Under the pieces are notes generated by a model. It was given only the letters and a program-made list of their open reading frames with translations, made no database searches and was not told the origin of the DNA. Below, in pieces: positions 5,946 to 14,812 of a DNA stretch of 64,000 nucleotides. Made by a program: the position numbers and the translations under genes. How positions within the stretch are numbered: the first letter of the stretch is position 1; each line of letters begins with the position of its first letter. Source of the DNA: Nevskiaceae bacterium (GTDB lineage Bacteria > Pseudomonadota > Gammaproteobacteria > Nevskiales > Nevskiaceae); NCBI GenBank assembly GCA_008012115.1, contig SSEB01000010.1, positions 47,407 through 111,406 of the forward strand, written 5' to 3'.

Positions 5946-6301
5946 GGGGCCGATCCGGATTCGACGGCGACTGGAAAGCTGACGTGCATGCCGAGCTGCG
6001 GTGGATCTCGTAAAACTCTTCCGCAAACAAGCTAGTTGCGAACGACGCGAACTACGCCCTCGCCGCTTAATCCGGTGAGCGTCTGACCGGTTGGTGTTGA
6101 TACCGCCGAATCAGACGTCGACTCATATCAACTCGCGGTGAGGCAGGTCACTGGCCAATCCGCTAAAACCCTAAAGTGAATAAGCGGCGGCGATCCGTGC
6201 CCATCCGGAAGCCACCGACCAAAATCAATGAACGGGCTACGCATGTAGATCGAAGGACGGAAGGTTGTCGGACGGGGGTTCAATTCCCCCCGGCTCCACC
6301 A
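5946..6301 (+). ncRNA. ssrA: tmRNA (ssrA)
   Basis: 5' GGGGCCGATCCGGATTCGACG pairs with 3' CGGCTCCACCA, including the G3:U alanine identity pair. T-arm GGGGGTTCAATTCCCCC. Tag reading frame GCG AAC GAC GCG AAC TAC GCC CTC GCC GCT TAA at 6038-6070 encodes ANDANYALAA. Confidence 0.9.
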
Positions 6302-6379
6302 ACATGGTGATGCGACCAACCACCGCTGCCTAAGTCAGACTAGTAAAGTCAGTGACTTAGCGGCGGTGGTTTTTTATTG
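6296..6379 (+). repeat. attL-like direct repeat (tmRNA 3' end plus terminator)
   Basis: CCACCAACATGGTGATGCGACCAACCACCGCTGCC (6296-6330) recurs identically at 14729-14763. GACTTAGCGGCGGTGGTTTTTTATTG (6354-6379) recurs at 14787-14812 with one mismatch. Confidence 0.85.
6320..6377 (+). terminator. ssrA intrinsic terminator (compound hairpin plus T-run)
   Basis: CCACCGCTGCC pairs with GGCGGCGGTGG. Inner stem TAAGTCA/TGACTTA. Followed by TTTTTT. Confidence 0.8.
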
Positions 6380-6601
6380 CCCGCCTCCTGACTCGTCAGC
6401 ATTTGGCACCAAAGGGCACCGGGAAGGCCACGGGAAGGCCACAGACAATTCGTCCATCTCGAAGCAGCGACGCCAACACCGGGACGCGCAGCGCCGGGGG
6501 TGGCGGCGCCTCACCACCCCGCGCACGCAGTCCACGCTTTGTCCACATGAGCCAGCCCCTACGGGTGCTGGAGCGATTGTGGGCAAAGGGTGGACTGCCT
6601 C

Positions 6602-7075
6602 TCACCCGGCTAACGCAATCGGCCAAGGGGGCGCGTCATGAGTGCCGGGGCGACGAGCGTAGCGAGTGCCCCCGGCGCGAGTGCCGCGCCCTTTGGGCTT
6701 GTCCCTTCTCCAACAAGTGACAGAAACCCCGACCTCATCATCGACCGATTCGAGAGTCGGTAACGACGAGTCCATCTTTGCAATCTTCGGCTTCGCACCG
6801 TTGCGGTTGCGGACCCGCTGCTGAGCCTTGTTGCGCTCGCGATATTCGTGGTGAGTTCTGCGGTACTCTCGCCAGTAGTCGGAATTCCGGCGGCACCAGG
6901 CCTTCTGTGCACTGCGCTGGTTTTCACGGTAGTCCGGATCCGTCCGGAGCTTGGCTTCCTGCCATCGGCGGCGGCGTTCGCGCTGACAGACAGCCGCCCG
7001 GCAGTAGGACTGTCGGGGAACTTGCGGCCGGGGACTGAAAAGTTGCCTGCAGGCAGCGCACAACCGTTTTTCCAT
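6602..7075 (-). CDS. hypothetical Cys4 zinc-ribbon-like, Arg/Tyr/Trp-rich protein
   Basis: N-terminal CAAC-x15-C-x4-C (MEKRLCAACRQLFSPRPQVPRQSYCRAAVCQ), then basic repeats DPDYRENQR...DYWREYRR..HEYRERNK. No family recognised. The C-terminal third may be read-through of a shorter gene. Confidence 0.4.
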   Translation of the reverse strand: MEKRLCAACRQLFSPRPQVPRQSYCRAAVCQRERRRRWQEAKLRTDPDYRENQRSAQKAWCRRNSDYWREYRRTHHEYRERNKAQQRVRNRNGAKPKIAKMDSSLPTLESVDDEVGVSVTCWRRDKPKGRGTRAGGTRYARRPGTHDAPPWPIALAG

Positions 7076-7240
7076 GAACAGCTCTCCATGCTCGAAATCG
7101 GCATGGGAACTGTGTGACGATGACGGTGCATCGACGCGGCCGGGGGACCGCGACCACCATGATCCATTTACTTCTCTGGCCCACGGGCGACGGGCCGGAA
7201 TTGCCCAGCGCCGTAGATCGGCACTGAAAGGGCGTTCCGA

Positions 7241-8590
7241 ATGTCGGTTCTACAAGCCTTGAAACAGCTGCCCGACGGGCTGTTTTGGAGTGCCCCGCTT
7301 GCCTCCGATTCGGACTTCACGGCGGAGGATCCGCTGGCGCTCGACTACCTCGGGCAACAGGTCGGCCTTTGGTTGTTCCGCGGGTTCACGACCCGGACCA
7401 ATCGGGCCCAGAACTACGCGGTCGTTCTCTACGGGCTCGACCTCGCAGAGAAGGCCATTCAGCGCTTCGGCTATCCGGGTGACGATGAAACCCGAACGCG
7501 CCTCTTCGAGCGCTGGGAGCGCTTCTGGGCGCTCGCGACCCTTGAGTTTCGGAACGGCCAGCTATCGCGGGGCGATGAGGATGCGATGCGAGGCGTGCGC
7601 GGCGCCACCCGAGCTTGGTTTCCCGGCAGCAAACCTCTTCCCACTGACTTCGCACTGATCTCGCGTCAAAACGAGCTGGGTGGTCTGGGCGCGTATTTGT
7701 CGTCCCTCCGGGAGTACGGATTGGTCTTCCCCGGATCGCTGCGCGTCACTCCCGCGGCACGTGAGATTCTTGACTCCTTCTGGTCGGACAAAACCGAGCG
7801 CGACTGGAGCCGTCTATACGAGGACTACGCTCTCTCCGCTTTGGACTTCGATGCCAAGACCATCCCACGGTCGAACGGGCGACTCACGCTTGGCGGGTTG
7901 GGCGATCGGTCTCGTCTCTCCAGCCTCCGACACCGCAGTCGCGGCGAACAACAGCAGCGCTTGTGGAACGCCTTGTTCGTCGGCGCGCGAGATGGGTCGA
8001 CGCTGCCTTTGGCCGAATGTCTCATCGCCGCCCATGAAGCCGGCGTGGACGATCCTGAACAACTACTGGAAGGCATGCTCGCCGACCGGTGGCGGCCGCT
8101 GACTTCTGACAATCGAGGCAAGGTTGAAATCGCATTGCTGTTCGGCAGGGTTGCTCGGCTGCTGCTTCGGCGATTCGACCGCGCGTACGGCCACGTCGAC
8201 GAACACGGATGGGTAGCGGATTTCGCGGCGGTTGCCGCCGCGTGTTTTCCGAACAAGGAGGCTACGGAGCTGCGCAAAGCCTGCACGGCCCTACTGGAAG
8301 CGCCTGACGCTCGGCGTTTCGGGGGCCTGCAGTTCCACGGTCCGGATTTCCTGACGCTCCTTCGAAGGTTGGCTTCGTCGACAGCGACCGCTTCGTTGGA
8401 ACACATGCTCGCGTTCCATCGCGCGGTTCAGCGCACGCGCCGAGGTGGAGGTTCCTGGTTGCGAACCGAGCAGGGAAAGCTCGTGATGCAAGTCGCGGGC
8501 TATGCGGGATACACGACCGACTCGGAATTTCCGGGGCTGAAACTCAACGTCGTGCGGCAGCTTCTCGGCGACTTGGGGAAGCTCCCATGA
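7241..8590 (+). CDS. hypothetical protein, first gene of the island three-gene cassette
   Basis: 449-aa ORF with normal amino-acid composition. Its stop overlaps the next start (ATGA at 8587-8590). No catalytic motif recognisable by eye. Confidence 0.7.
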   Translation: MSVLQALKQLPDGLFWSAPLASDSDFTAEDPLALDYLGQQVGLWLFRGFTTRTNRAQNYAVVLYGLDLAEKAIQRFGYPGDDETRTRLFERWERFWALATLEFRNGQLSRGDEDAMRGVRGATRAWFPGSKPLPTDFALISRQNELGGLGAYLSSLREYGLVFPGSLRVTPAAREILDSFWSDKTERDWSRLYEDYALSALDFDAKTIPRSNGRLTLGGLGDRSRLSSLRHRSRGEQQQRLWNALFVGARDGSTLPLAECLIAAHEAGVDDPEQLLEGMLADRWRPLTSDNRGKVEIALLFGRVARLLLRRFDRAYGHVDEHGWVADFAAVAAACFPNKEATELRKACTALLEAPDARRFGGLQFHGPDFLTLLRRLASSTATASLEHMLAFHRAVQRTRRGGGSWLRTEQGKLVMQVAGYAGYTTDSEFPGLKLNVVRQLLGDLGKLP

Positions 8591-10740
8591 ATTTCGGGTC
8601 ATGGCGCGTCCTCGACCAGCTCCCGGCCGAGGAGCCGTGCCTGGGCGCGCTTTTCACGTCCTACAGCTTCGATCCCGCCTTCTTCGAGGAGCACGTTCTT
8701 CGAGCCGTGCTTCGACTCACTTCGGATCCGATCGAGCAGGCCGAGCGCTACCACCACGAGGCCAGACGAGCCCTGCAAGAAACCCCCGTCGTCGCCATCG
8801 TCGATGCCGGTGAGCGCCGACCCGGCCGGCGCCTGCCATTCGACCTACTCGAGGTCTCGGAGGCGGTATTCCATCCGAAATCCGTACTACTGCTCTATCG
8901 CAAATTCGCTAGGTTGCTCATCGGCTCGGGAAACCTCACATTCTCCGGCTACGGCGGCAACACCGAGCTGTTTCTGCGCACGGATCTGTCGTACACCAAT
9001 GCCACCGACGCTTCGATGCTGGCGGCATTCGACACCCACCTGGGACGAATACGCGCCTTGGTCAGGCATCCGGGGACGCAGTTCGATCTATTCCGCCAGG
9101 AGATGCGTCGGCGAATTCCCAATGCCGTCGCGGATCCGGTATCGCCGGCCCTTGCGCTTCTGGATTCGACCGGCGGACCCGTCATCCAGCAGTTGGCGGC
9201 GCTGCTGCCGGCGAACGCGGTCATCGAGTCTATCGGCATGCTCGCGCCGTTCTACGAACGAGACGACGCAGCGGAACTCGACGTGACTTCCGTGTTCGGG
9301 GCACTCGCGCCCCAAGCGGGTAAGGATGCGCTGCTCGATGTCGGTGTCGCGTGGGATAACCCGCAGGTCCATGCATCAAGCGCGTCGAGCCTGGAAGGCG
9401 GCCTGGGTCGCATCTGGACGTGGGCAACCGAGAAGGACGGGGCGCGCGTGCTCCAGCATATGGTTCCCACCGGCCTGGGTCCAAACACGCTCGCCTACGT
9501 CGATGACACCGGCCAGGGCCGCCGCGGTCCGCTTGACGAGGTGCAGGACGCCATCGAGCAGCGCAATCTGTGGGTCCAGCCGCCGCCGATTGCGTTCGCG
9601 CCCCGCAACGCGATTGCCGCTGCCGCGAAACGTTTTGCGGAAGTTCGCTTGTGGCTGCACCCCGCCACTCGACTCGACGAGGGGCGGCCCGTGCACCGGC
9701 CACTGCACGCGAAGCTGATGGTCGTTGCCTACCGTTCCGGTCGCACGCGTGAATCCTTGGTGATGCTGGGCTCGCCTAACATGTCGCGCCGAGCACTGCT
9801 CATGGGCGCCGGAACCGGCGCGGGCAACGTCGAGATCGCGGTCGCATTTCGCTTGGACTCGGTCGTTACCTTGCGCGACCTCGTCCCGGAGCTCGTTCAT
9901 GCCCCCGCCTCGGCATTCGAACTCAAGGAGCGGGACTTCCCCGAACCTGCGCGCAACTACGCCTTGGCAGTCGACCGCGCCGTTCACGACCCGACCGCAG
10001 GCTCGCTGGTGGTGAGCTGGTCACCGGCGGCATCCGACCTTCCGGCCTGGCGCCTGTCGTACGACGGCACCCAACTGGCGACCTCAACCTCGCCACCCGA
10101 TGCCCCGATCGTCGTTCCTGGATTCGTCCTGAAACCGTCGACGGCCGAAATCGTGCTCCACGTCGATGGGCGGGATTGTCCTGTGCCGATTCTCGTCACC
10201 GACCTCGTGGCATTGCCAGCCGCCCCTTCCGGACCCTCGATCGGACTCGACGAACTGCTGATGCTGCTCGGCCGAAGAATCGGCGCCGAGCGAGCAATTC
10301 AGATCGCAGAACGCCGCGAGCGCGACCCTGGCGGCAATGACGAGCTCGCTGCGATTTTCGGAGACGGCTTCGGTCCTACCGACGTCTTTCGTGCGTGGTG
10401 GTCTGTTGCCGACGATTTGAGAGACCCGAGCCTTTCGGTGCAGGGATTCCGACTTCGCCTCGAAGGCGCACTCGGCGCAGGAGCAGCATGGGCCTGCATG
10501 CTCGATGCAGTGAAGGCCAAACCCCTGACCCCGGAAGAAATTTGGTTCTACGGCGCCGAACTGCTCCGAACGTTGGGCGAGGTGGACATGCCACCCGCCG
10601 AAGATCGCGACGCCAAGGATGCTGTGTTGAAGACGTTCTGCGCCCGCGTGCGAGATGATCTGCGTTCTCTTGCCATCGATGCTGGCCCCCGACCCTGGGT
10701 AGAAAGAATCACGGCTTTCTATCGCGAGGCTCAGGCATGA
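8587..10740 (+). CDS. phospholipase-D-superfamily nuclease-like protein with two HxK...GSxN half-sites
   Basis: FHPKSVLLLY...LLIGSGNLT (aa about 96-117) and LHAKLMVVAY...VMLGSPNMS (aa about 374-398). This is the BfiI/NgoFVII-style HxK without the conserved Asp. A roughly 320-aa C-terminal extension is unassigned. Confidence 0.75.
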   Translation: MNFGSWRVLDQLPAEEPCLGALFTSYSFDPAFFEEHVLRAVLRLTSDPIEQAERYHHEARRALQETPVVAIVDAGERRPGRRLPFDLLEVSEAVFHPKSVLLLYRKFARLLIGSGNLTFSGYGGNTELFLRTDLSYTNATDASMLAAFDTHLGRIRALVRHPGTQFDLFRQEMRRRIPNAVADPVSPALALLDSTGGPVIQQLAALLPANAVIESIGMLAPFYERDDAAELDVTSVFGALAPQAGKDALLDVGVAWDNPQVHASSASSLEGGLGRIWTWATEKDGARVLQHMVPTGLGPNTLAYVDDTGQGRRGPLDEVQDAIEQRNLWVQPPPIAFAPRNAIAAAAKRFAEVRLWLHPATRLDEGRPVHRPLHAKLMVVAYRSGRTRESLVMLGSPNMSRRALLMGAGTGAGNVEIAVAFRLDSVVTLRDLVPELVHAPASAFELKERDFPEPARNYALAVDRAVHDPTAGSLVVSWSPAASDLPAWRLSYDGTQLATSTSPPDAPIVVPGFVLKPSTAEIVLHVDGRDCPVPILVTDLVALPAAPSGPSIGLDELLMLLGRRIGAERAIQIAERRERDPGGNDELAAIFGDGFGPTDVFRAWWSVADDLRDPSLSVQGFRLRLEGALGAGAAWACMLDAVKAKPLTPEEIWFYGAELLRTLGEVDMPPAEDRDAKDAVLKTFCARVRDDLRSLAIDAGPRPWVERITAFYREAQA

Positions 10741-13628
10741 GCGCTCGAAACCGCGAATGGCTGCGTACCTTTCTGCGCCTGGGAGCACGTGCGGAGAAAG
10801 ACGGTATTCCGATCGCGGACGTGGAGCGTCAGGAGGACACTGTCATCCGGGCGCTCGACATGCTCGACGACCGACCAGGCATCGTGCTTGCCGACGAGGT
10901 GGGAATGGGCAAGACCTACGAGGCGCTCGGAATCGCGGCCGCTGCACGCCATTCGAACCGACGCAGCCGAATCGTCGTCGTGACTCCGGGCCCCGACCTC
11001 AACACAAAGTGGTTTTCGGAGTTCTCTCGGTTCCGGGAGATGTACGACTTCGGTGACGACGTCGTTGCCGTCAGCAGCCTCGCGGAATTCGTTCACACCA
11101 TTCGCAAGCATCCCGTCGTGGTCGCGCCGGTGACGATGTTCCAGAGCGGCCGTGGTTCGGGCGCGCAGACATTCTTGCTATCGCTCTACTTTCATTGGAA
11201 GCAGCTCCACGGTCACACGGCGAATGCGATCATGGCGCGCTTTCGCGATGGCGCCCACGACCGCGTCGACGTCCGCACCGAGAAGTTTCTGGACGCCTTC
11301 ACCTTGGATCAACTCGAACCCCATCTTCAGGCGGCATTTCGTCGCGGACGGTCAGGTGGTGCCGCCGGGCTGGACGACCTGTATGACGCAGCCGGGTTGC
11401 AGGCATTCGACAACCAGGACGCCGTGCGCGCCGCGCTCTATCGAGCCCGATTTGTGCTGACGGGAAAATTGATGCCGATGCTCGATCTCCTGATCGTGGA
11501 CGAAGCGCACAAACTCAAGAATCCCGGATCGCTTCGGACGGACGCTATGCGCCGCGTCTTCCACAGGCGGTTCCGCAAGGCGTTGTTCTTGACGGCGACG
11601 CCGTTCCAGCTCGACGTTGCCGAATTGCGGGAAGTGTTCCGCATCTTCGCCGGCGCCGAGGACGCGCCCAAAGACCTCGAAAGCCAGGTGGAGGAATTGC
11701 TCGCTGCGGTTGCCGACTATCAAGCGCAGTACGAGGCGTTTCAGCAGACATGGTGCGCGCTGGATCCTGCCGTGGCGGCCGAGTTCCGCACGCTTTACGA
11801 CAACCAGCCTACCGCCCTCGAAGCCATCGAGGTGCCTTCGCTGCAGCTGATTACCAAGCAGGTGGCTGCCCTGAAGGCTCTCAAGACCCAAGCGATCGAG
11901 CCCGGCTTCCGCAAGTGGATGATCCGGAGCCTGCGCGAGGACAAGCGGACCTATCGTGCGCATCTGCGAAGGCCCATCCTCGCGGCGGGGGCCGGGGCGT
12001 TCCCCTTCTTGATCTATGAGCGCTTCATCGCCGAGCTGTTTCGGAGGCAGCGCCAGACGCACAAGGCGGCGGTCGAAATCAACATGGTCTCGTCATTCGC
12101 GGCGGCGCGGCAGGGAACGATCCTGTCCACGACGGATGGCATACCTGCGGAAGCCGAGGTTTACCGGCAACTGCTGCGCGAGGTCCTCGGCGACATCGAA
12201 ATGTGCGGCCATGACCATCCCAAGATTTCCGACGCTATCACCGATGCCCTGGATGCCGCTGATCGTGGCGAGAAGACTCTGATCTTTTGCTCGCGTGTCG
12301 CAACGCTTGAGCAGCTGCGGCGCGAGCTGGACGCAACATGGGAGTCCAGAATCCTGGAGCGGTGGCAACGCGTCTACCCTGGGACCGGCGCGACCGACAT
12401 CTTCGATACCCGGGAAGACGACGACAAACGACAACGCGGCCGGCATTCACTGCTGCAGGCGCGATTCCATCGTCCCCAGGATGCTCTCTATCTCGCATTG
12501 CGAGAGCCCTACTTGCGTACCATCGTCTCCACTGCGGAATGGGCACTCGCGCACCTGCCTGCCGTCGTGGAGGAGGCCAATCGCATCCTGGCCGGACTGC
12601 GGCTCGGCAAGACGTCGGCGGAGCGTCTCGATTACCAGGTCGCCAGACGCTGCGTGGAGCAAGCCGCTGCGCGGCTATCCGCCTCTGCAGGGGCAATTCC
12701 CGCTGCCGAGCGAGATGCGGTTGACCATCTGCTCAACGTGGACTACGTCAAGCTCGGCCTCGATCTGGCGCACGATGAATTCGAGAACGATTCGATCGGG
12801 ACCGAGGCTCCTCAGTGGCATATCACCGAGCGTGTTGCCCAGACAGTCGTCGGTACCCCGGGTTCGATCTGGGAGAGGCACACTGACCTCCTCGGCGCCC
12901 TTTCGCCAGTGTTGCGCGTCAGGGTCGTCGAACAGCTTGCGCGATACCTAACCTACAAGCAGGTTCCGTTTCTGGCGGATCTGCTCACGGAGGCCAAGGC
13001 CGCCGGCGCCCCCCTCGATCCAGTGGAATCGTCCAGCGTGCTGGATCTCATGCCCACCTTCTGGGAATCGGCTCCGGGCCGACGGTGGTTGGAGCAGATC
13101 GGGGCCTTTCTGCGCTATTTCCTCCAGCGCGATCCTCGCCAGCAACTCGAGATCCTGGACGGGCCCATCAAGACCGGGGATTTCGCTCGGCACACGCGCG
13201 ATGGCGAAAGCCGCGAGCGGCTCCGGGAAGCCTTCAACACCCCGCTCTATCCCATGATCCTGATCGCGAACGAAGTCATGCAGGAGGGACTCGACTTGCA
13301 CAAGCATTGCCGTCGGATCGTGCACCACGATCTCGTCTGGAATCCGGCGCAGGTCGAGCAGCGGATTGGGCGCATCGACCGCCTGGGATCGCTGACCAGC
13401 CGCCTCCGAAAGAACGGCTCCGACATCACGCTGGACGTGCTGTACCCGGTCATACGCGGCACGATCGACGAACGTCTGTTCCGAACCGTGAAGACCAGGG
13501 AAAAGTGGCTCGAATTCCTGCTGGGCGCGCCGCCGAATTTCTCCGACTACAGCTTTACCGACGAGGTGCCTCCCCCGCTACCTGAAAAGTTGAGTGCGGA
13601 CCTGGCGGTCGATCTCGGGCCGCGCTGA
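10737..13628 (+). CDS. SNF2-family (DEAH) helicase/translocase
   Basis: Motif I LADEVGMGKTYEA, motif II LLIVDEAHKLKN (about 11491-11520), motif III LFLTATPFQL, C-terminal lobe LIANEVMQEGLDLHKHCRRIVHHDLVWNPAQVEQRIGRIDRLGS. Start overlaps the upstream stop (ATGA at 10737-10740). Confidence 0.9.
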   Translation: MSARNREWLRTFLRLGARAEKDGIPIADVERQEDTVIRALDMLDDRPGIVLADEVGMGKTYEALGIAAAARHSNRRSRIVVVTPGPDLNTKWFSEFSRFREMYDFGDDVVAVSSLAEFVHTIRKHPVVVAPVTMFQSGRGSGAQTFLLSLYFHWKQLHGHTANAIMARFRDGAHDRVDVRTEKFLDAFTLDQLEPHLQAAFRRGRSGGAAGLDDLYDAAGLQAFDNQDAVRAALYRARFVLTGKLMPMLDLLIVDEAHKLKNPGSLRTDAMRRVFHRRFRKALFLTATPFQLDVAELREVFRIFAGAEDAPKDLESQVEELLAAVADYQAQYEAFQQTWCALDPAVAAEFRTLYDNQPTALEAIEVPSLQLITKQVAALKALKTQAIEPGFRKWMIRSLREDKRTYRAHLRRPILAAGAGAFPFLIYERFIAELFRRQRQTHKAAVEINMVSSFAAARQGTILSTTDGIPAEAEVYRQLLREVLGDIEMCGHDHPKISDAITDALDAADRGEKTLIFCSRVATLEQLRRELDATWESRILERWQRVYPGTGATDIFDTREDDDKRQRGRHSLLQARFHRPQDALYLALREPYLRTIVSTAEWALAHLPAVVEEANRILAGLRLGKTSAERLDYQVARRCVEQAAARLSASAGAIPAAERDAVDHLLNVDYVKLGLDLAHDEFENDSIGTEAPQWHITERVAQTVVGTPGSIWERHTDLLGALSPVLRVRVVEQLARYLTYKQVPFLADLLTEAKAAGAPLDPVESSSVLDLMPTFWESAPGRRWLEQIGAFLRYFLQRDPRQQLEILDGPIKTGDFARHTRDGESRERLREAFNTPLYPMILIANEVMQEGLDLHKHCRRIVHHDLVWNPAQVEQRIGRIDRLGSLTSRLRKNGSDITLDVLYPVIRGTIDERLFRTVKTREKWLEFLLGAPPNFSDYSFTDEVPPPLPEKLSADLAVDLGPR

Positions 13629-13672
13629 TTGCGCAGCAGCAGTGACGTGGTCGACGCCAGGCCGGGCCAAGT

Positions 13673-14278
13673 TCAGACGCCGGCGACTCTGAAATATCCG
13701 ATGATGCAGTCTGGATTGCGCACGGCGATCTGCACGTGAGTGCGCTTCTTGAAGCCGGCACCCGGATAAAGCTCCTCACCTTCTTCGAAGACGCCGTATA
13801 CGGTGTCGTAGGGGTCGAGTTCGGCCTCTTCACGGAGCTCGTGCACGGTCTTGATGACGGCACAATCCAGCGACCGCCGCAGAAAAACGCCGCTGGCCTG
13901 ATGCGTGTTCTTCGGAAGGTCAGCCTTGGCCTTGGCTGCGGCACTGGCGAGAAACTTGTGAGCGTCGGCCAACTCCTGCATCACCCCGTAGTCGGTGAGG
14001 TTGAGGCACAAGCCCGGGTGAATCAGGGCGCCGATCACAAAGGGCGTCTTGACGCTTGGGGTTTTGGTCTTGCCACGCTTGCGCTGACTGAGTTCCTGCG
14101 CCCAAGCAAGTCCGCGCTCCGGGCTATCGACCCAGAAGTAAGTCCCGGGCCCGAGCCAGTCGTACTCGTTCTCACTTGGCTTGAGCTTGGCCTTGCCGGC
14201 AAGAACCGATTCACCGACTGCTTCGTCACACCCGTGGAAGGCCACGAACGGGCCGAGGGTGTGCTTGGAACGACTCAA
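13673..14278 (-). CDS. hypothetical protein with ADP-ribosyltransferase-like motifs (possibly DUF3990-like toxin)
   Basis: VAFHGCDEAV, then LGPGTYFWVDSPERGLAWA (compare PARP-type HG[ST] and GxGxYF), and C-terminal THVQIAVRNPDCIIGYF. Assigned by motif resemblance only. Confidence 0.55.
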   Translation of the reverse strand: MSRSKHTLGPFVAFHGCDEAVGESVLAGKAKLKPSENEYDWLGPGTYFWVDSPERGLAWAQELSQRKRGKTKTPSVKTPFVIGALIHPGLCLNLTDYGVMQELADAHKFLASAAAKAKADLPKNTHQASGVFLRRSLDCAVIKTVHELREEAELDPYDTVYGVFEEGEELYPGAGFKKRTHVQIAVRNPDCIIGYFRVAGV

Positions 14279-14433
14279 CGGTAGTTGGCCGCCAGTTTGC
14301 CGCTCTTCGTGATGATGCCGGCTTTCACGAGAAATTTGACGGAGCGCTCACGGTCCTTCTGAACCTCGCGCGCAACGTCACGCGCCTGCTTGGGCAGGAC
14401 TTTGGCGGAGGCTTTGGTCACGACTGCGTTCAT
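14275..14433 (-). CDS. small basic protein coupled to the ART-like gene (putative antitoxin or partner)
   Basis: 52 aa: MNAVVTKASAKVLPKQARDVAREVQKDRERSVKFLVKAGIITKSGKLAANYR. Its stop overlaps the downstream ATG by 4 nt (14275-14278). An alternative start at 14457 is possible. Confidence 0.4.
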   Translation of the reverse strand: MNAVVTKASAKVLPKQARDVAREVQKDRERSVKFLVKAGIITKSGKLAANYR

Positions 14434-14728
14434 GTGGCGAGTATACCGACTTACCATCCCACCGACCAGACTGTATGCCAATCGTGAACAAGGAGCAGGG
14501 CCTTCGTGCCGGACGGCCAGGCCCCGCTGGGCGTCTTCATTTGAAGTCTGTGCCTCTCGCCCTCCGGACGCGGGTTCAGTTCCGCCGTCCGGAATCGAAT
14601 TGACGTTCGGCGCTGGGGCACGCCGGAGACCGTGCATCAAGGCGCCCCACGTAACTCCGCAATACTTCGCGAGATTCCGTTATTCTCCCGAGTTGAGAGG
14701 GGCGGTTCGTCCTCGACGGACTTCTCCA

Positions 14729-14812
14729 CCACCAACATGGTGATGCGACCAACCACCGCTGCCCAAACCTGACGCTGCGCGTCACGGACTTGGCGGCGGT
14801 GGTTTTTTATTG
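14729..14812 (+). repeat. attR-like direct repeat with orphan ssrA-type terminator
   Basis: Identical 35-mer at 14729-14763. A hairpin (inner stem TGACGC/GCGTCA) plus GGCGGCGGTGGTTTTTT follows at 14787-14808. No + strand gene reads into it. Confidence 0.85.

Follow-up and report, generated by a model that had tools for sequence, protein, structure and literature searches.

Three adjacent genes, here termed A, B and C, were analysed in a window of 64,000 nucleotides (nt) of DNA from Nevskiaceae bacterium (assembly GCA_008012115.1, contig SSEB01000010.1, positions 47,407-111,406 of the forward strand); all coordinates below are those of the window. The comparison of the three encoded proteins with known families makes it likely that the operon specifies an anti-phage or anti-plasmid nuclease machine, which would represent a divergent clade of the superfamily that includes Azaca (ZacABC) and PDC-M27. 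Azaca itself reportedly goes back to Millman et al. 2022. The genes, as given by the list of open reading frames (ORFs), are the following.

7241-8590, + strand: gene A, 449 amino acids (aa)
8587-10740, + strand: gene B, 717 aa
10737-13628, + strand: gene C, 963 aa

The positions of the three + strand genes and of their junctions, read directly from the sequence, are those put forward in the original prediction. Each junction consists of a 4-nt stop/start overlap (ATGA); the A/B junction at 8587-8590 reads cccATGAat, and the B/C junction at 10737-10740 reads gcATGAgc. The accompanying proposal of a single coupled unit is borne out by the conservation of the trio in other genomes. A genome scan with one genome per species returned 40 loci, and A, B and C are adjacent in identical order and strand at 29 of them, that is, at 29 of the 33 loci with room for the whole operon. 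A and B are followed by the end of the contig at five of the 40 loci, and A stands at a contig end at two. The remaining four loci (L033, L036, L037 and L040) hold fragments of A only, despite room for the operon; these are decayed copies, a common fate of defence cassettes. At L037, a fragment of gene C is also present, 4 kb from the fragment of A. Across 28 loci, the three proteins diverge from their window counterparts in parallel (Pearson r = 0.96-0.97 between the identities).

The trio is carried by Proteobacteria, Myxococcota and Planctomycetota. Identity to the window copy amounts to 78-79% in Caballeronia and Burkholderia, 74-77% in Polyangiaceae and Kofleriaceae, and 70% in Planctomycetes, while Bradyrhizobium, Dyella and many other Myxococcota are further hosts. 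Identities of 70-79% across phyla point to horizontal transfer. An identical B protein is recorded from a Nevskiaceae bacterium metagenome-assembled genome (MAG), and orthologues of 92% identity also exist. A-B-C is an operon with translational coupling, and both inheritance and horizontal transfer move it as one unit. For gene A, 307 homologues were found; among the matches listed, identities range from 56 to 92% and the annotation is hypothetical throughout, and a precomputed Pfam domain over the gene A region is present in none of the 307.

Two loci of the wider set deserve separate mention. In the Methylocystis sp. MJC1 plasmid NZ_CP107561 (L067, 9004-12467), A (34% identity) and B lie at the end of the linearised record, so that C would span the origin; the record calls both proteins hypothetical, and QueC-like, XRE, Fic and methyltransferase-domain genes are the neighbours. 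At L038 (10001-16423), the N-terminal part of A is 69% identical to the window protein, B 32% and C 45%, values suggestive of an operon of mosaic or recombinant origin. A search of phage genomes yielded no relative.

Gene B carries two half-sites of the phospholipase D (PLD) type.

8869-8940, + strand: first PLD half-site of gene B, FHPKSVLLLYRKFARLLIGSGNLT, with H96, K98, S114 and N116
9703-9786, + strand: second PLD half-site of gene B, LHAKLMVVAYRSGRTRESLVMLGSPNMS, with H374, K376, S396 and N398

The half-sites, H96-x-K98...GS114-x-N116 and H374-x-K376...GS396-x-N398, are invariant in 28 homologues, and the catalytic residues are kept even in the clades that are most distant. The first half-site is retained in 33 of 35 aligned orthologues, distant clades included; the other two rows (L005 and L016) are gaps, where the segment was missed by ORF extraction. 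The aspartate of the HKD motif is absent from both half-sites. The AlphaFold2 (AF2) model of gene B has a predicted local distance difference test score (pLDDT) of 86.6 and a predicted template modelling score (pTM) of 0.88. Foldseek places it closest to Tdp1 of yeast and of human (probability 1.0, E 8e-8 to 1e-5, template modelling score (TM) 0.43-0.48), followed by the PLD nucleases NgoAVII, SauUSI and BfiI. The two H-x-K...(G/S)SxN half-sites, together with the PLD fold of the predicted model, assign the protein to the PLD superfamily, whereas the Pfam family PLDc_2 falls below its cut-off (22.4 vs 27 bits). Judged by its motifs and model, gene B encodes an intact, single-chain, two-lobed PLD phosphodiesterase of the H-x-K...GSxN type. 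The presence of both half-sites in one chain, with histidines at 96 and 374, had been anticipated correctly; the C-terminal region, earlier taken as ~320 aa, is in fact ~260 aa long and comprises a beta-sandwich (~aa 460-535), for which Foldseek returns Fn3-like matches, and a helical domain (~aa 554-714) that matched nothing assignable. The PADLOC matches of gene B are led by ZacB (2.5e-13), with PDC-M27B (5.3e-6, spanning aa 91-131 only) and DrmC (6e-4) behind it.

Gene C contains the complete motif set of an SNF2 motor.

10902-10916, + strand: Walker A (motif I) GMGKT of gene C, aa 56-60
11499-11510, + strand: DEAH box (motif II) of gene C, aa 255-258
aa 286-291 of gene C: motif III, TATPFQ
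aa 513-518 of gene C: motif IV, KTLIFC
aa 849-854 of gene C: motif V, QEGLDL
aa 875-884 of gene C: motif VI, QRIGRIDRLG

Motifs I, Ia and II-VI are conserved across all clades. The Pfam families SNF2-rel_dom (43.4 bits, cut-off 24.9) and Helicase_C (44.2 bits, cut-off 23.5) score above their gathering thresholds, as does ResIII, and with motifs I-VI intact this assigns gene C to the SNF2 family; from its sequence, it is an intact SNF2 ATPase/translocase. The original prediction was right about the full motif set, but the single insertion of ~350 aa that it placed between the two lobes is replaced by two inserts, one of ~220 aa between motifs III and IV (~292-512) and one of ~330 aa between motifs IV and V (~519-848). 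RapA and eukaryotic SNF2 remodellers are the nearest solved structures. Among the PADLOC models, PDC-M27C ranks at the top (8.7e-48), followed by ZacC (1.4e-29) and DrmD (1.3e-28) and then by DrmA, DpdE and BrxH. The ZacC match amounts to 101 bits in two stretches and is outscored by PDC-M27C.

Gene A is the conserved partner of the nuclease and the motor. Its conserved motifs are listed below.

aa 29-37 of gene A: EDPLALDYL
aa 50-59 of gene A: TTRTNRAQNY
aa 90-99 of gene A: ERWERFWALA
aa 141-152 of gene A: SRQNELGGLGAY
aa 392-406 of gene A: FHRAVQRTRRGGGSW

The protein has no match in Pfam (0.01), NCBIfam or PADLOC (up to E 10). The AF2 model (pLDDT 87, pTM 0.84) is mostly alpha-helical; its N-terminus (aa 1-30) is low in pLDDT although conserved in sequence. 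A Foldseek search with it against PDB and BFVD returned nothing better than E 0.14. Profile searches of genes A and B against PDB sequences likewise gave nothing meaningful. Two of the checks proposed with the original prediction were productive in part: the structure search resolved the C-terminus of B and left gene A without a PDB or BFVD match, and the scan with PADLOC hidden Markov models (HMMs) matched B to ZacB and C to PDC-M27C and left gene A without a match.

The family profile of gene A, compared with 1.84 billion representative proteins, gave 260 matches, which include many full-length proteins of 420-470 aa aligned over the N-terminal half or more. Among 45 distant full-length relatives, 10 match PDC-M27A (FAM_00725; best 9e-26) and 10 match ZacA (best 1.9e-8), and the ZacA matches fall in the N-terminal region that aligns to gene A. 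Alignment of the A family with two clusters of relatives by hhalign gave probabilities of 99.9% and 100% over ~400 columns. The link to the ZacA and PDC-M27A families runs through their HMMs. By these profile comparisons, gene A is remotely homologous, over its full length, to the gene that opens many other A-PLD-SNF2 operons, and it is most likely a remote member of the ZacA/PDC-M27A superfamily.

The operons of these distant relatives have the same layout. Ten metagenome loci (L047-L051, L058, L059, L061, L063 and L066) show the order A-B-C, with overlapping junctions and with sizes of 429-480 aa for A, 628-731 aa for B and 920-1193 aa for C; the contig of L048 ends within C. Two remote relatives of A, P0365 and P0326, stand on contigs so short that no neighbouring gene is visible. 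Three of the distant operons were scanned against PADLOC, and in these the best match of B is ZacB (1e-25 to 4e-16) and that of C is PDC-M27C. No PADLOC match was obtained for the A proteins of the three scanned operons and of L063.

Azaca consists of a DUF6361 protein (ZacA), a PLD nuclease (ZacB) and a helicase (ZacC) (bioRxiv 10.1101/2025.07.10.664194). The window operon shares with it the order of unknown protein, PLD nuclease and superfamily 2 (SF2)/SNF2 helicase, and likewise the lack of a methyltransferase. It differs in that gene A is not recognised by the ZacA and DUF6361 HMMs, in that B is ~130 aa longer than the ZacB model and has a helical C-terminal domain, and in its hosts, which are high-GC Proteobacteria, Myxococcota and Planctomycetota in the window clade vs Bacillus for Azaca. 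PDC-M27 is a three-family candidate cassette, CAS_00110, obtained by ‘guilt by embedding’ and included in PADLOC-DB v2 (Payne et al., bioRxiv 10.1101/2024.01.29.577857). The name ‘PDC-M27’ is absent from the main texts searched and was found only in the cassette table of the PADLOC preprint supplement. The cassette order A>>B>>C is the same as in the window, PDC-M27C is the top match of gene C in all of PADLOC, and some remote relatives of gene A match PDC-M27A strongly (to 9e-26). In contrast to a PDC-M27 cassette, in which the three HMMs hit adjacent genes, the window operon gives no hit for A, 5.3e-6 for B and 8.7e-48 for C, and a score of 161 bits on the 892-position PDC-M27C model indicates a different clade.

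The homology of the trio to the components of Azaca and PDC-M27 suggests that the window operon is a divergent clade of their superfamily and no fragment of DISARM. The sequence comparisons further indicate a single superfamily, made up of Azaca, PDC-M27 and several clades not yet catalogued, in which the order A-PLD-SNF2 is fixed. The Azaca architecture, which had been named as a lead, is the one that held, with ZacB as the best match of B, PDC-M27C and then ZacC as those of C, and A as a remote homologue of proteins that match ZacA or PDC-M27A. The suggestion of a new helicase-nuclease system is not supported, since each of the three proteins has a homologue in an architecture already known.

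Two further groups of enzymes bear comparison with the operon. In the SauUSI-type type IV enzymes, too, an ATP-dependent SF2 motor goes with a nuclease of the PLD fold, and no cognate methyltransferase is needed. SauUSI, NgoAVII and BfiI possess a single PLD half-site that dimerises and is fused to a helicase or a DNA reader in one chain, whereas in the window operon both half-sites reside in one chain, with the motor and the third subunit as proteins of their own. No reader domain for modified bases was recognised in the window operon. Tyrosyl-DNA phosphodiesterase 1 (Tdp1), a eukaryotic repair enzyme, is the best fold match of B, and both are single-chain pseudo-dimers with two H-x-K...N sites that lack the HKD aspartate. 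The identity between them is 9-12% at a TM of ~0.45, with no sequence-profile match, and B differs in having two extra C-terminal domains and operon partners.

The mode of action of such a machine can be outlined by analogy with Bacillus Azaca. The original prediction had held the mechanism of Azaca to be uncharacterised, a view overtaken by a 2025 preprint, which shows cleavage of T4 DNA by ZacABC (bioRxiv 10.1101/2025.07.10.664194). Cutting of T4 DNA by BmAzaca needs all three proteins, the PLD site and the Walker A of ZacC; the enzyme prefers T4 glucosyl-hydroxymethylcytosine (glucosyl-hmC) DNA, and protection against T4 exceeds 10^6-fold (>10^6-fold; bioRxiv 10.1101/2025.07.10.664194). A joint need for the three proteins in ATP-dependent cleavage of (modified) phage DNA, along with protection against T-even phages, is on record for BmAzaca only. 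In the window operon, A, B and C would assemble into a complex, in which C would draw on ATP to load onto double-stranded DNA or to move along it and B would cut the DNA without metal via a covalent phosphohistidine intermediate (H96, H374). Gene A would supply a subunit that is obligatory, with a structural or regulatory part to play, and that may confer specificity. Since the cassette brings no methyltransferase along, the host DNA probably escapes through the need for a feature of the invading DNA, which could be a base modification, comparable to T4 glucosyl-hmC in Azaca, or an unusual DNA structure. The logic would then resemble that of a type IV (modification-dependent) restriction enzyme, unlike that of a restriction-modification (R-M) pair.

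Several observations weigh against the assignment of the operon to this superfamily and against the function proposed for it. No direct match exists between gene A and the HMMs of ZacA, PDC-M27A or Pfam DUF6361. The link from gene A to ZacA is transitive, and the intermediates match ZacA weakly (1.9e-8 at best) and solely within the N-terminal 100-190 residues. The match between gene B and ZacB (47.8 bits) joins only aa 366-497 with positions 292-413 of the 586 of the model, for which there is no curated cut-off. The 161 bits between gene C and PDC-M27C are distributed over three stretches and reflect mainly generic helicase motifs. PDC-M27 itself is a ‘phage defence candidate’ only. With BmAzaca, conserved residues of ZacA could be mutated without effect in vitro (bioRxiv 10.1101/2025.07.10.664194). 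Lastly, no integrase or recombinase gene is found among the ORFs of the insert that carries the operon (6296-14812).

This insert is located at the 3' end of the gene for transfer-messenger RNA (tmRNA), ssrA, and its borders are marked by the features below.

5946-6301, + strand: tmRNA gene (ssrA), found by ARAGORN and by Rfam (190.9 bits); its 3' end is the left border of the insert
6296-6379, + strand: left direct repeat, comprising the last 6 nt of ssrA and the terminator
14729-14812, + strand: right direct repeat, whose identity to the left copy is 91% and whose terminator stem is a variant; right end of the insert

The direct repeats of ~85 nt are 91% identical, with the mismatches located in the terminator stem-loop, and enclose an insert of 8.4 kb (6296-14812). 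The repeats share only 6 nt with ssrA, the rest being mostly terminator, and the stem is not alike in the two copies. The ssrA end, used as a 28-nt probe, has no further match, and none (0) is expected by chance. The gene smpB lies upstream of ssrA, while a photolyase gene and then a sigma-54 activator lie beyond the right end of the insert. The G+C content of the insert is 0.63 vs 0.66 in the remainder of the window. A-B-C is the main cargo of the ssrA-adjacent insert, as had been proposed, and the repeats delimit the island. The other ORFs of the insert are small, and none has a Pfam match. In the Rfam scan, tmRNA was the sole match, and promoter and terminator scans of the island gave nothing above the shuffled expectation. 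The insert contains no methyltransferase gene.

Apart from the operon core, the insert holds a two-gene module.

13673-14433, - strand: co-cargo module outside the operon core, with a 52-aa ORF (14433-14275) and a 201-aa ORF (14278-13673)

The stop of the 52-aa ORF overlaps the TTG start of the 201-aa ORF by 4 nt. The 201-aa protein bears the pattern ‘FHGC...YDWLGPGTYFW...E’ and shows a weak PADLOC match to PD-T4-9_A (3.5e-5). A homologue of 36% identity stands divergently upstream of the distant A-B-C operon at L058 and L059, and none is present at the other 40 genome loci. Possibly the pair acts in defence or as a toxin, as a second small module that shares islands with A-B-C operons. Between the left repeat and gene A, a 157-aa ORF (6602-7075, - strand) encodes a protein that is rich in Cys at the N-terminus (CxxC...C...C) and very basic in the middle; it matches no family and has no homologue in the related loci.

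The surroundings of the orthologues vary between genomes, with no conserved housekeeping context at any orthologous locus examined. Insertion sequence (IS) elements lie beside the operon in B. multivorans, proteases and sulfatases in Bradyrhizobium, and a large serine recombinase and DUF2726 in Mariniblastus. In Dyella jiangningensis (L069, 1326-8481), a complete type I R-M system with two HsdM, HsdS and HsdR immediately precedes the operon. The orthologue of 92% identity (L068, 1-9362) follows a cluster of N6_Mtase/Eco57I, a 943-aa protein, a 1384-aa helicase and a 731-aa protein. The 94 nearest neighbour ORFs at 26 loci span 89 Pfam families with at most four ORFs per family, and Mrr, BrxL, AbiEii-type AAA_21, NA-iREase1 and NYN are among these families. 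No DNA methyltransferase recurs among the 94 ORFs, which agrees, together with its absence from the insert, with the methyltransferase-free unit envisaged at the outset. The variable neighbours and the lack of a recurrent methyltransferase indicate a cassette that is self-contained, mobile and often beside defence genes. The neighbourhood check that had been recommended thus came out in favour of the prediction, with homologues co-localised, frequently next to defence genes, and in no conserved housekeeping context.

One upstream protein could be an occasional fourth component. In a distant clade (L047/L050, 6500-7990), a 496-aa protein is encoded immediately upstream of A, co-directionally and with a 10-nt gap, and a full-length homologue of 31% identity occupies the equivalent position in a close clade (L005, 7848-9335). 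Neither the 496-aa neighbour nor a 1374-aa neighbour has a PDB sequence match. Upstream proteins of ~1380 aa at three loci were considered as a recurrent partner and rejected, as they are mutually non-homologous.

Other explanations of the operon have to be weighed against these data. DISARM, a defence system, also has a PLD-family protein next to an SNF2 helicase and shows similarity at the HMM level, and the original prediction had noted the resemblance. B and C could accordingly be DrmC and DrmD of a DISARM-type restriction module after the loss of DrmA, DrmB and the methyltransferase, and PADLOC does report DrmD (1.3e-28) and DrmC (6e-4), as does NCBIfam for DrmD (1.5e-34). The NCBIfam equivalog cut-offs are missed by a wide interval, with 119.5 vs 610 bits for DrmD and 15.1 vs 133 bits for DrmC; PDC-M27C and ZacC outscore DrmD for C, and ZacB stands far above DrmC for B. 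DrmC models are single-lobed with 150-270 positions, whereas B is two-lobed with 717 aa. DrmA, DrmB (DUF1998) and a methyltransferase (DrmMI/DrmMII) are absent from the island, none of them recurs beside orthologues, and the partner that is conserved, gene A, has no counterpart in DISARM. With the cut-offs unmet and the core genes missing, the assignment to DISARM was rejected, and a trimmed DISARM is very improbable. It is still harder to credit that the three ORFs are a decayed or inactive remnant that no longer works as a system. Four related loci do hold gene A fragments only, and the island is without an integrase; the window ORFs, on the other hand, are full length, with every catalytic motif intact and the overlapping junctions preserved, and an identical B from the same MAG lineage and orthologues of 92% identity exist.

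A role in DNA repair, in which a Tdp1-like B would strip 3' adducts or trapped protein-DNA complexes, C would clear or locate the lesion and A would act as an adaptor, draws on the structural matches: yeast and human Tdp1 head the list for B (E 8e-8 to 1e-5, probability 1.0), both half-sites are of the Tdp1-like H-x-K...N type without the HKD aspartate, and RapA, the nearest solved relative of C, is a housekeeping SNF2 protein. We regard this role as quite unlikely, considering that the TM to Tdp1 is only 0.43-0.48 and a sequence-level comparison of B with PDB chains gave no match. Copies are scattered over the hosts in a patchy way that clearly reflects horizontal spread, some of them are decayed, and the cassette is found in islands, on a plasmid and beside R-M, Mrr and BREX genes with no conserved repair neighbourhood; moreover, the homologous Azaca PLD cleaves phage DNA endonucleolytically. 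The same machine might also serve competition between mobile elements or maintenance of the island (exclusion of plasmids or rival islands, or addiction) in place of phage defence. The operon is the main cargo of a small integrase-less ssrA insert, IS elements or recombinases flank other copies, one copy is on a plasmid, and no relative turned up in phage genomes. Such a role, which differs from phage defence in its target alone and shares the architecture and chemistry, appears unlikely in view of the strong protection by Azaca against phage T4 and of the absence of any evident toxin-antitoxin logic within A-B-C.

An anti-phage or anti-plasmid nuclease of the Azaca/PDC-M27 superfamily is therefore the reading we favour, and its implications concern mainly the family. 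The window operon is not a new category of system; it links Azaca with PDC-M27. The A-PLD-SNF2 superfamily occurs widely among high-GC bacteria of soil and aquatic habitats, and the PADLOC v2 models scanned recognise gene C partially, gene B weakly and gene A not at all, which constitutes an annotation gap; family profiles of A and B, once added to such tools, would make these systems annotatable. As a lead for nuclease work, B offers a single-chain Tdp1-like H-x-K...N PLD, unlike a dimeric HKD nuclease. The proteobacterial version, which is well conserved, with confident models of A and B (pLDDT 87 each), provides a second, distant test case for the Azaca-type first subunit. A bolder and rather doubtful proposal is that the window clade and other ‘dark’ A-PLD-SNF2 clades are functionally distinct from Bacillus Azaca, with gene A, whose set of polar motifs is conserved and whose fold found no relative, as a new kind of sensor that sets the target, be it an infection cue or a feature of DNA distinct from glucosyl-hmC. 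If this were true, Azaca, PDC-M27 and these clades would be members of a single large and modular family, that of SNF2-driven PLD nucleases that lack a methyltransferase, within which the specificity subunits would be interchangeable.

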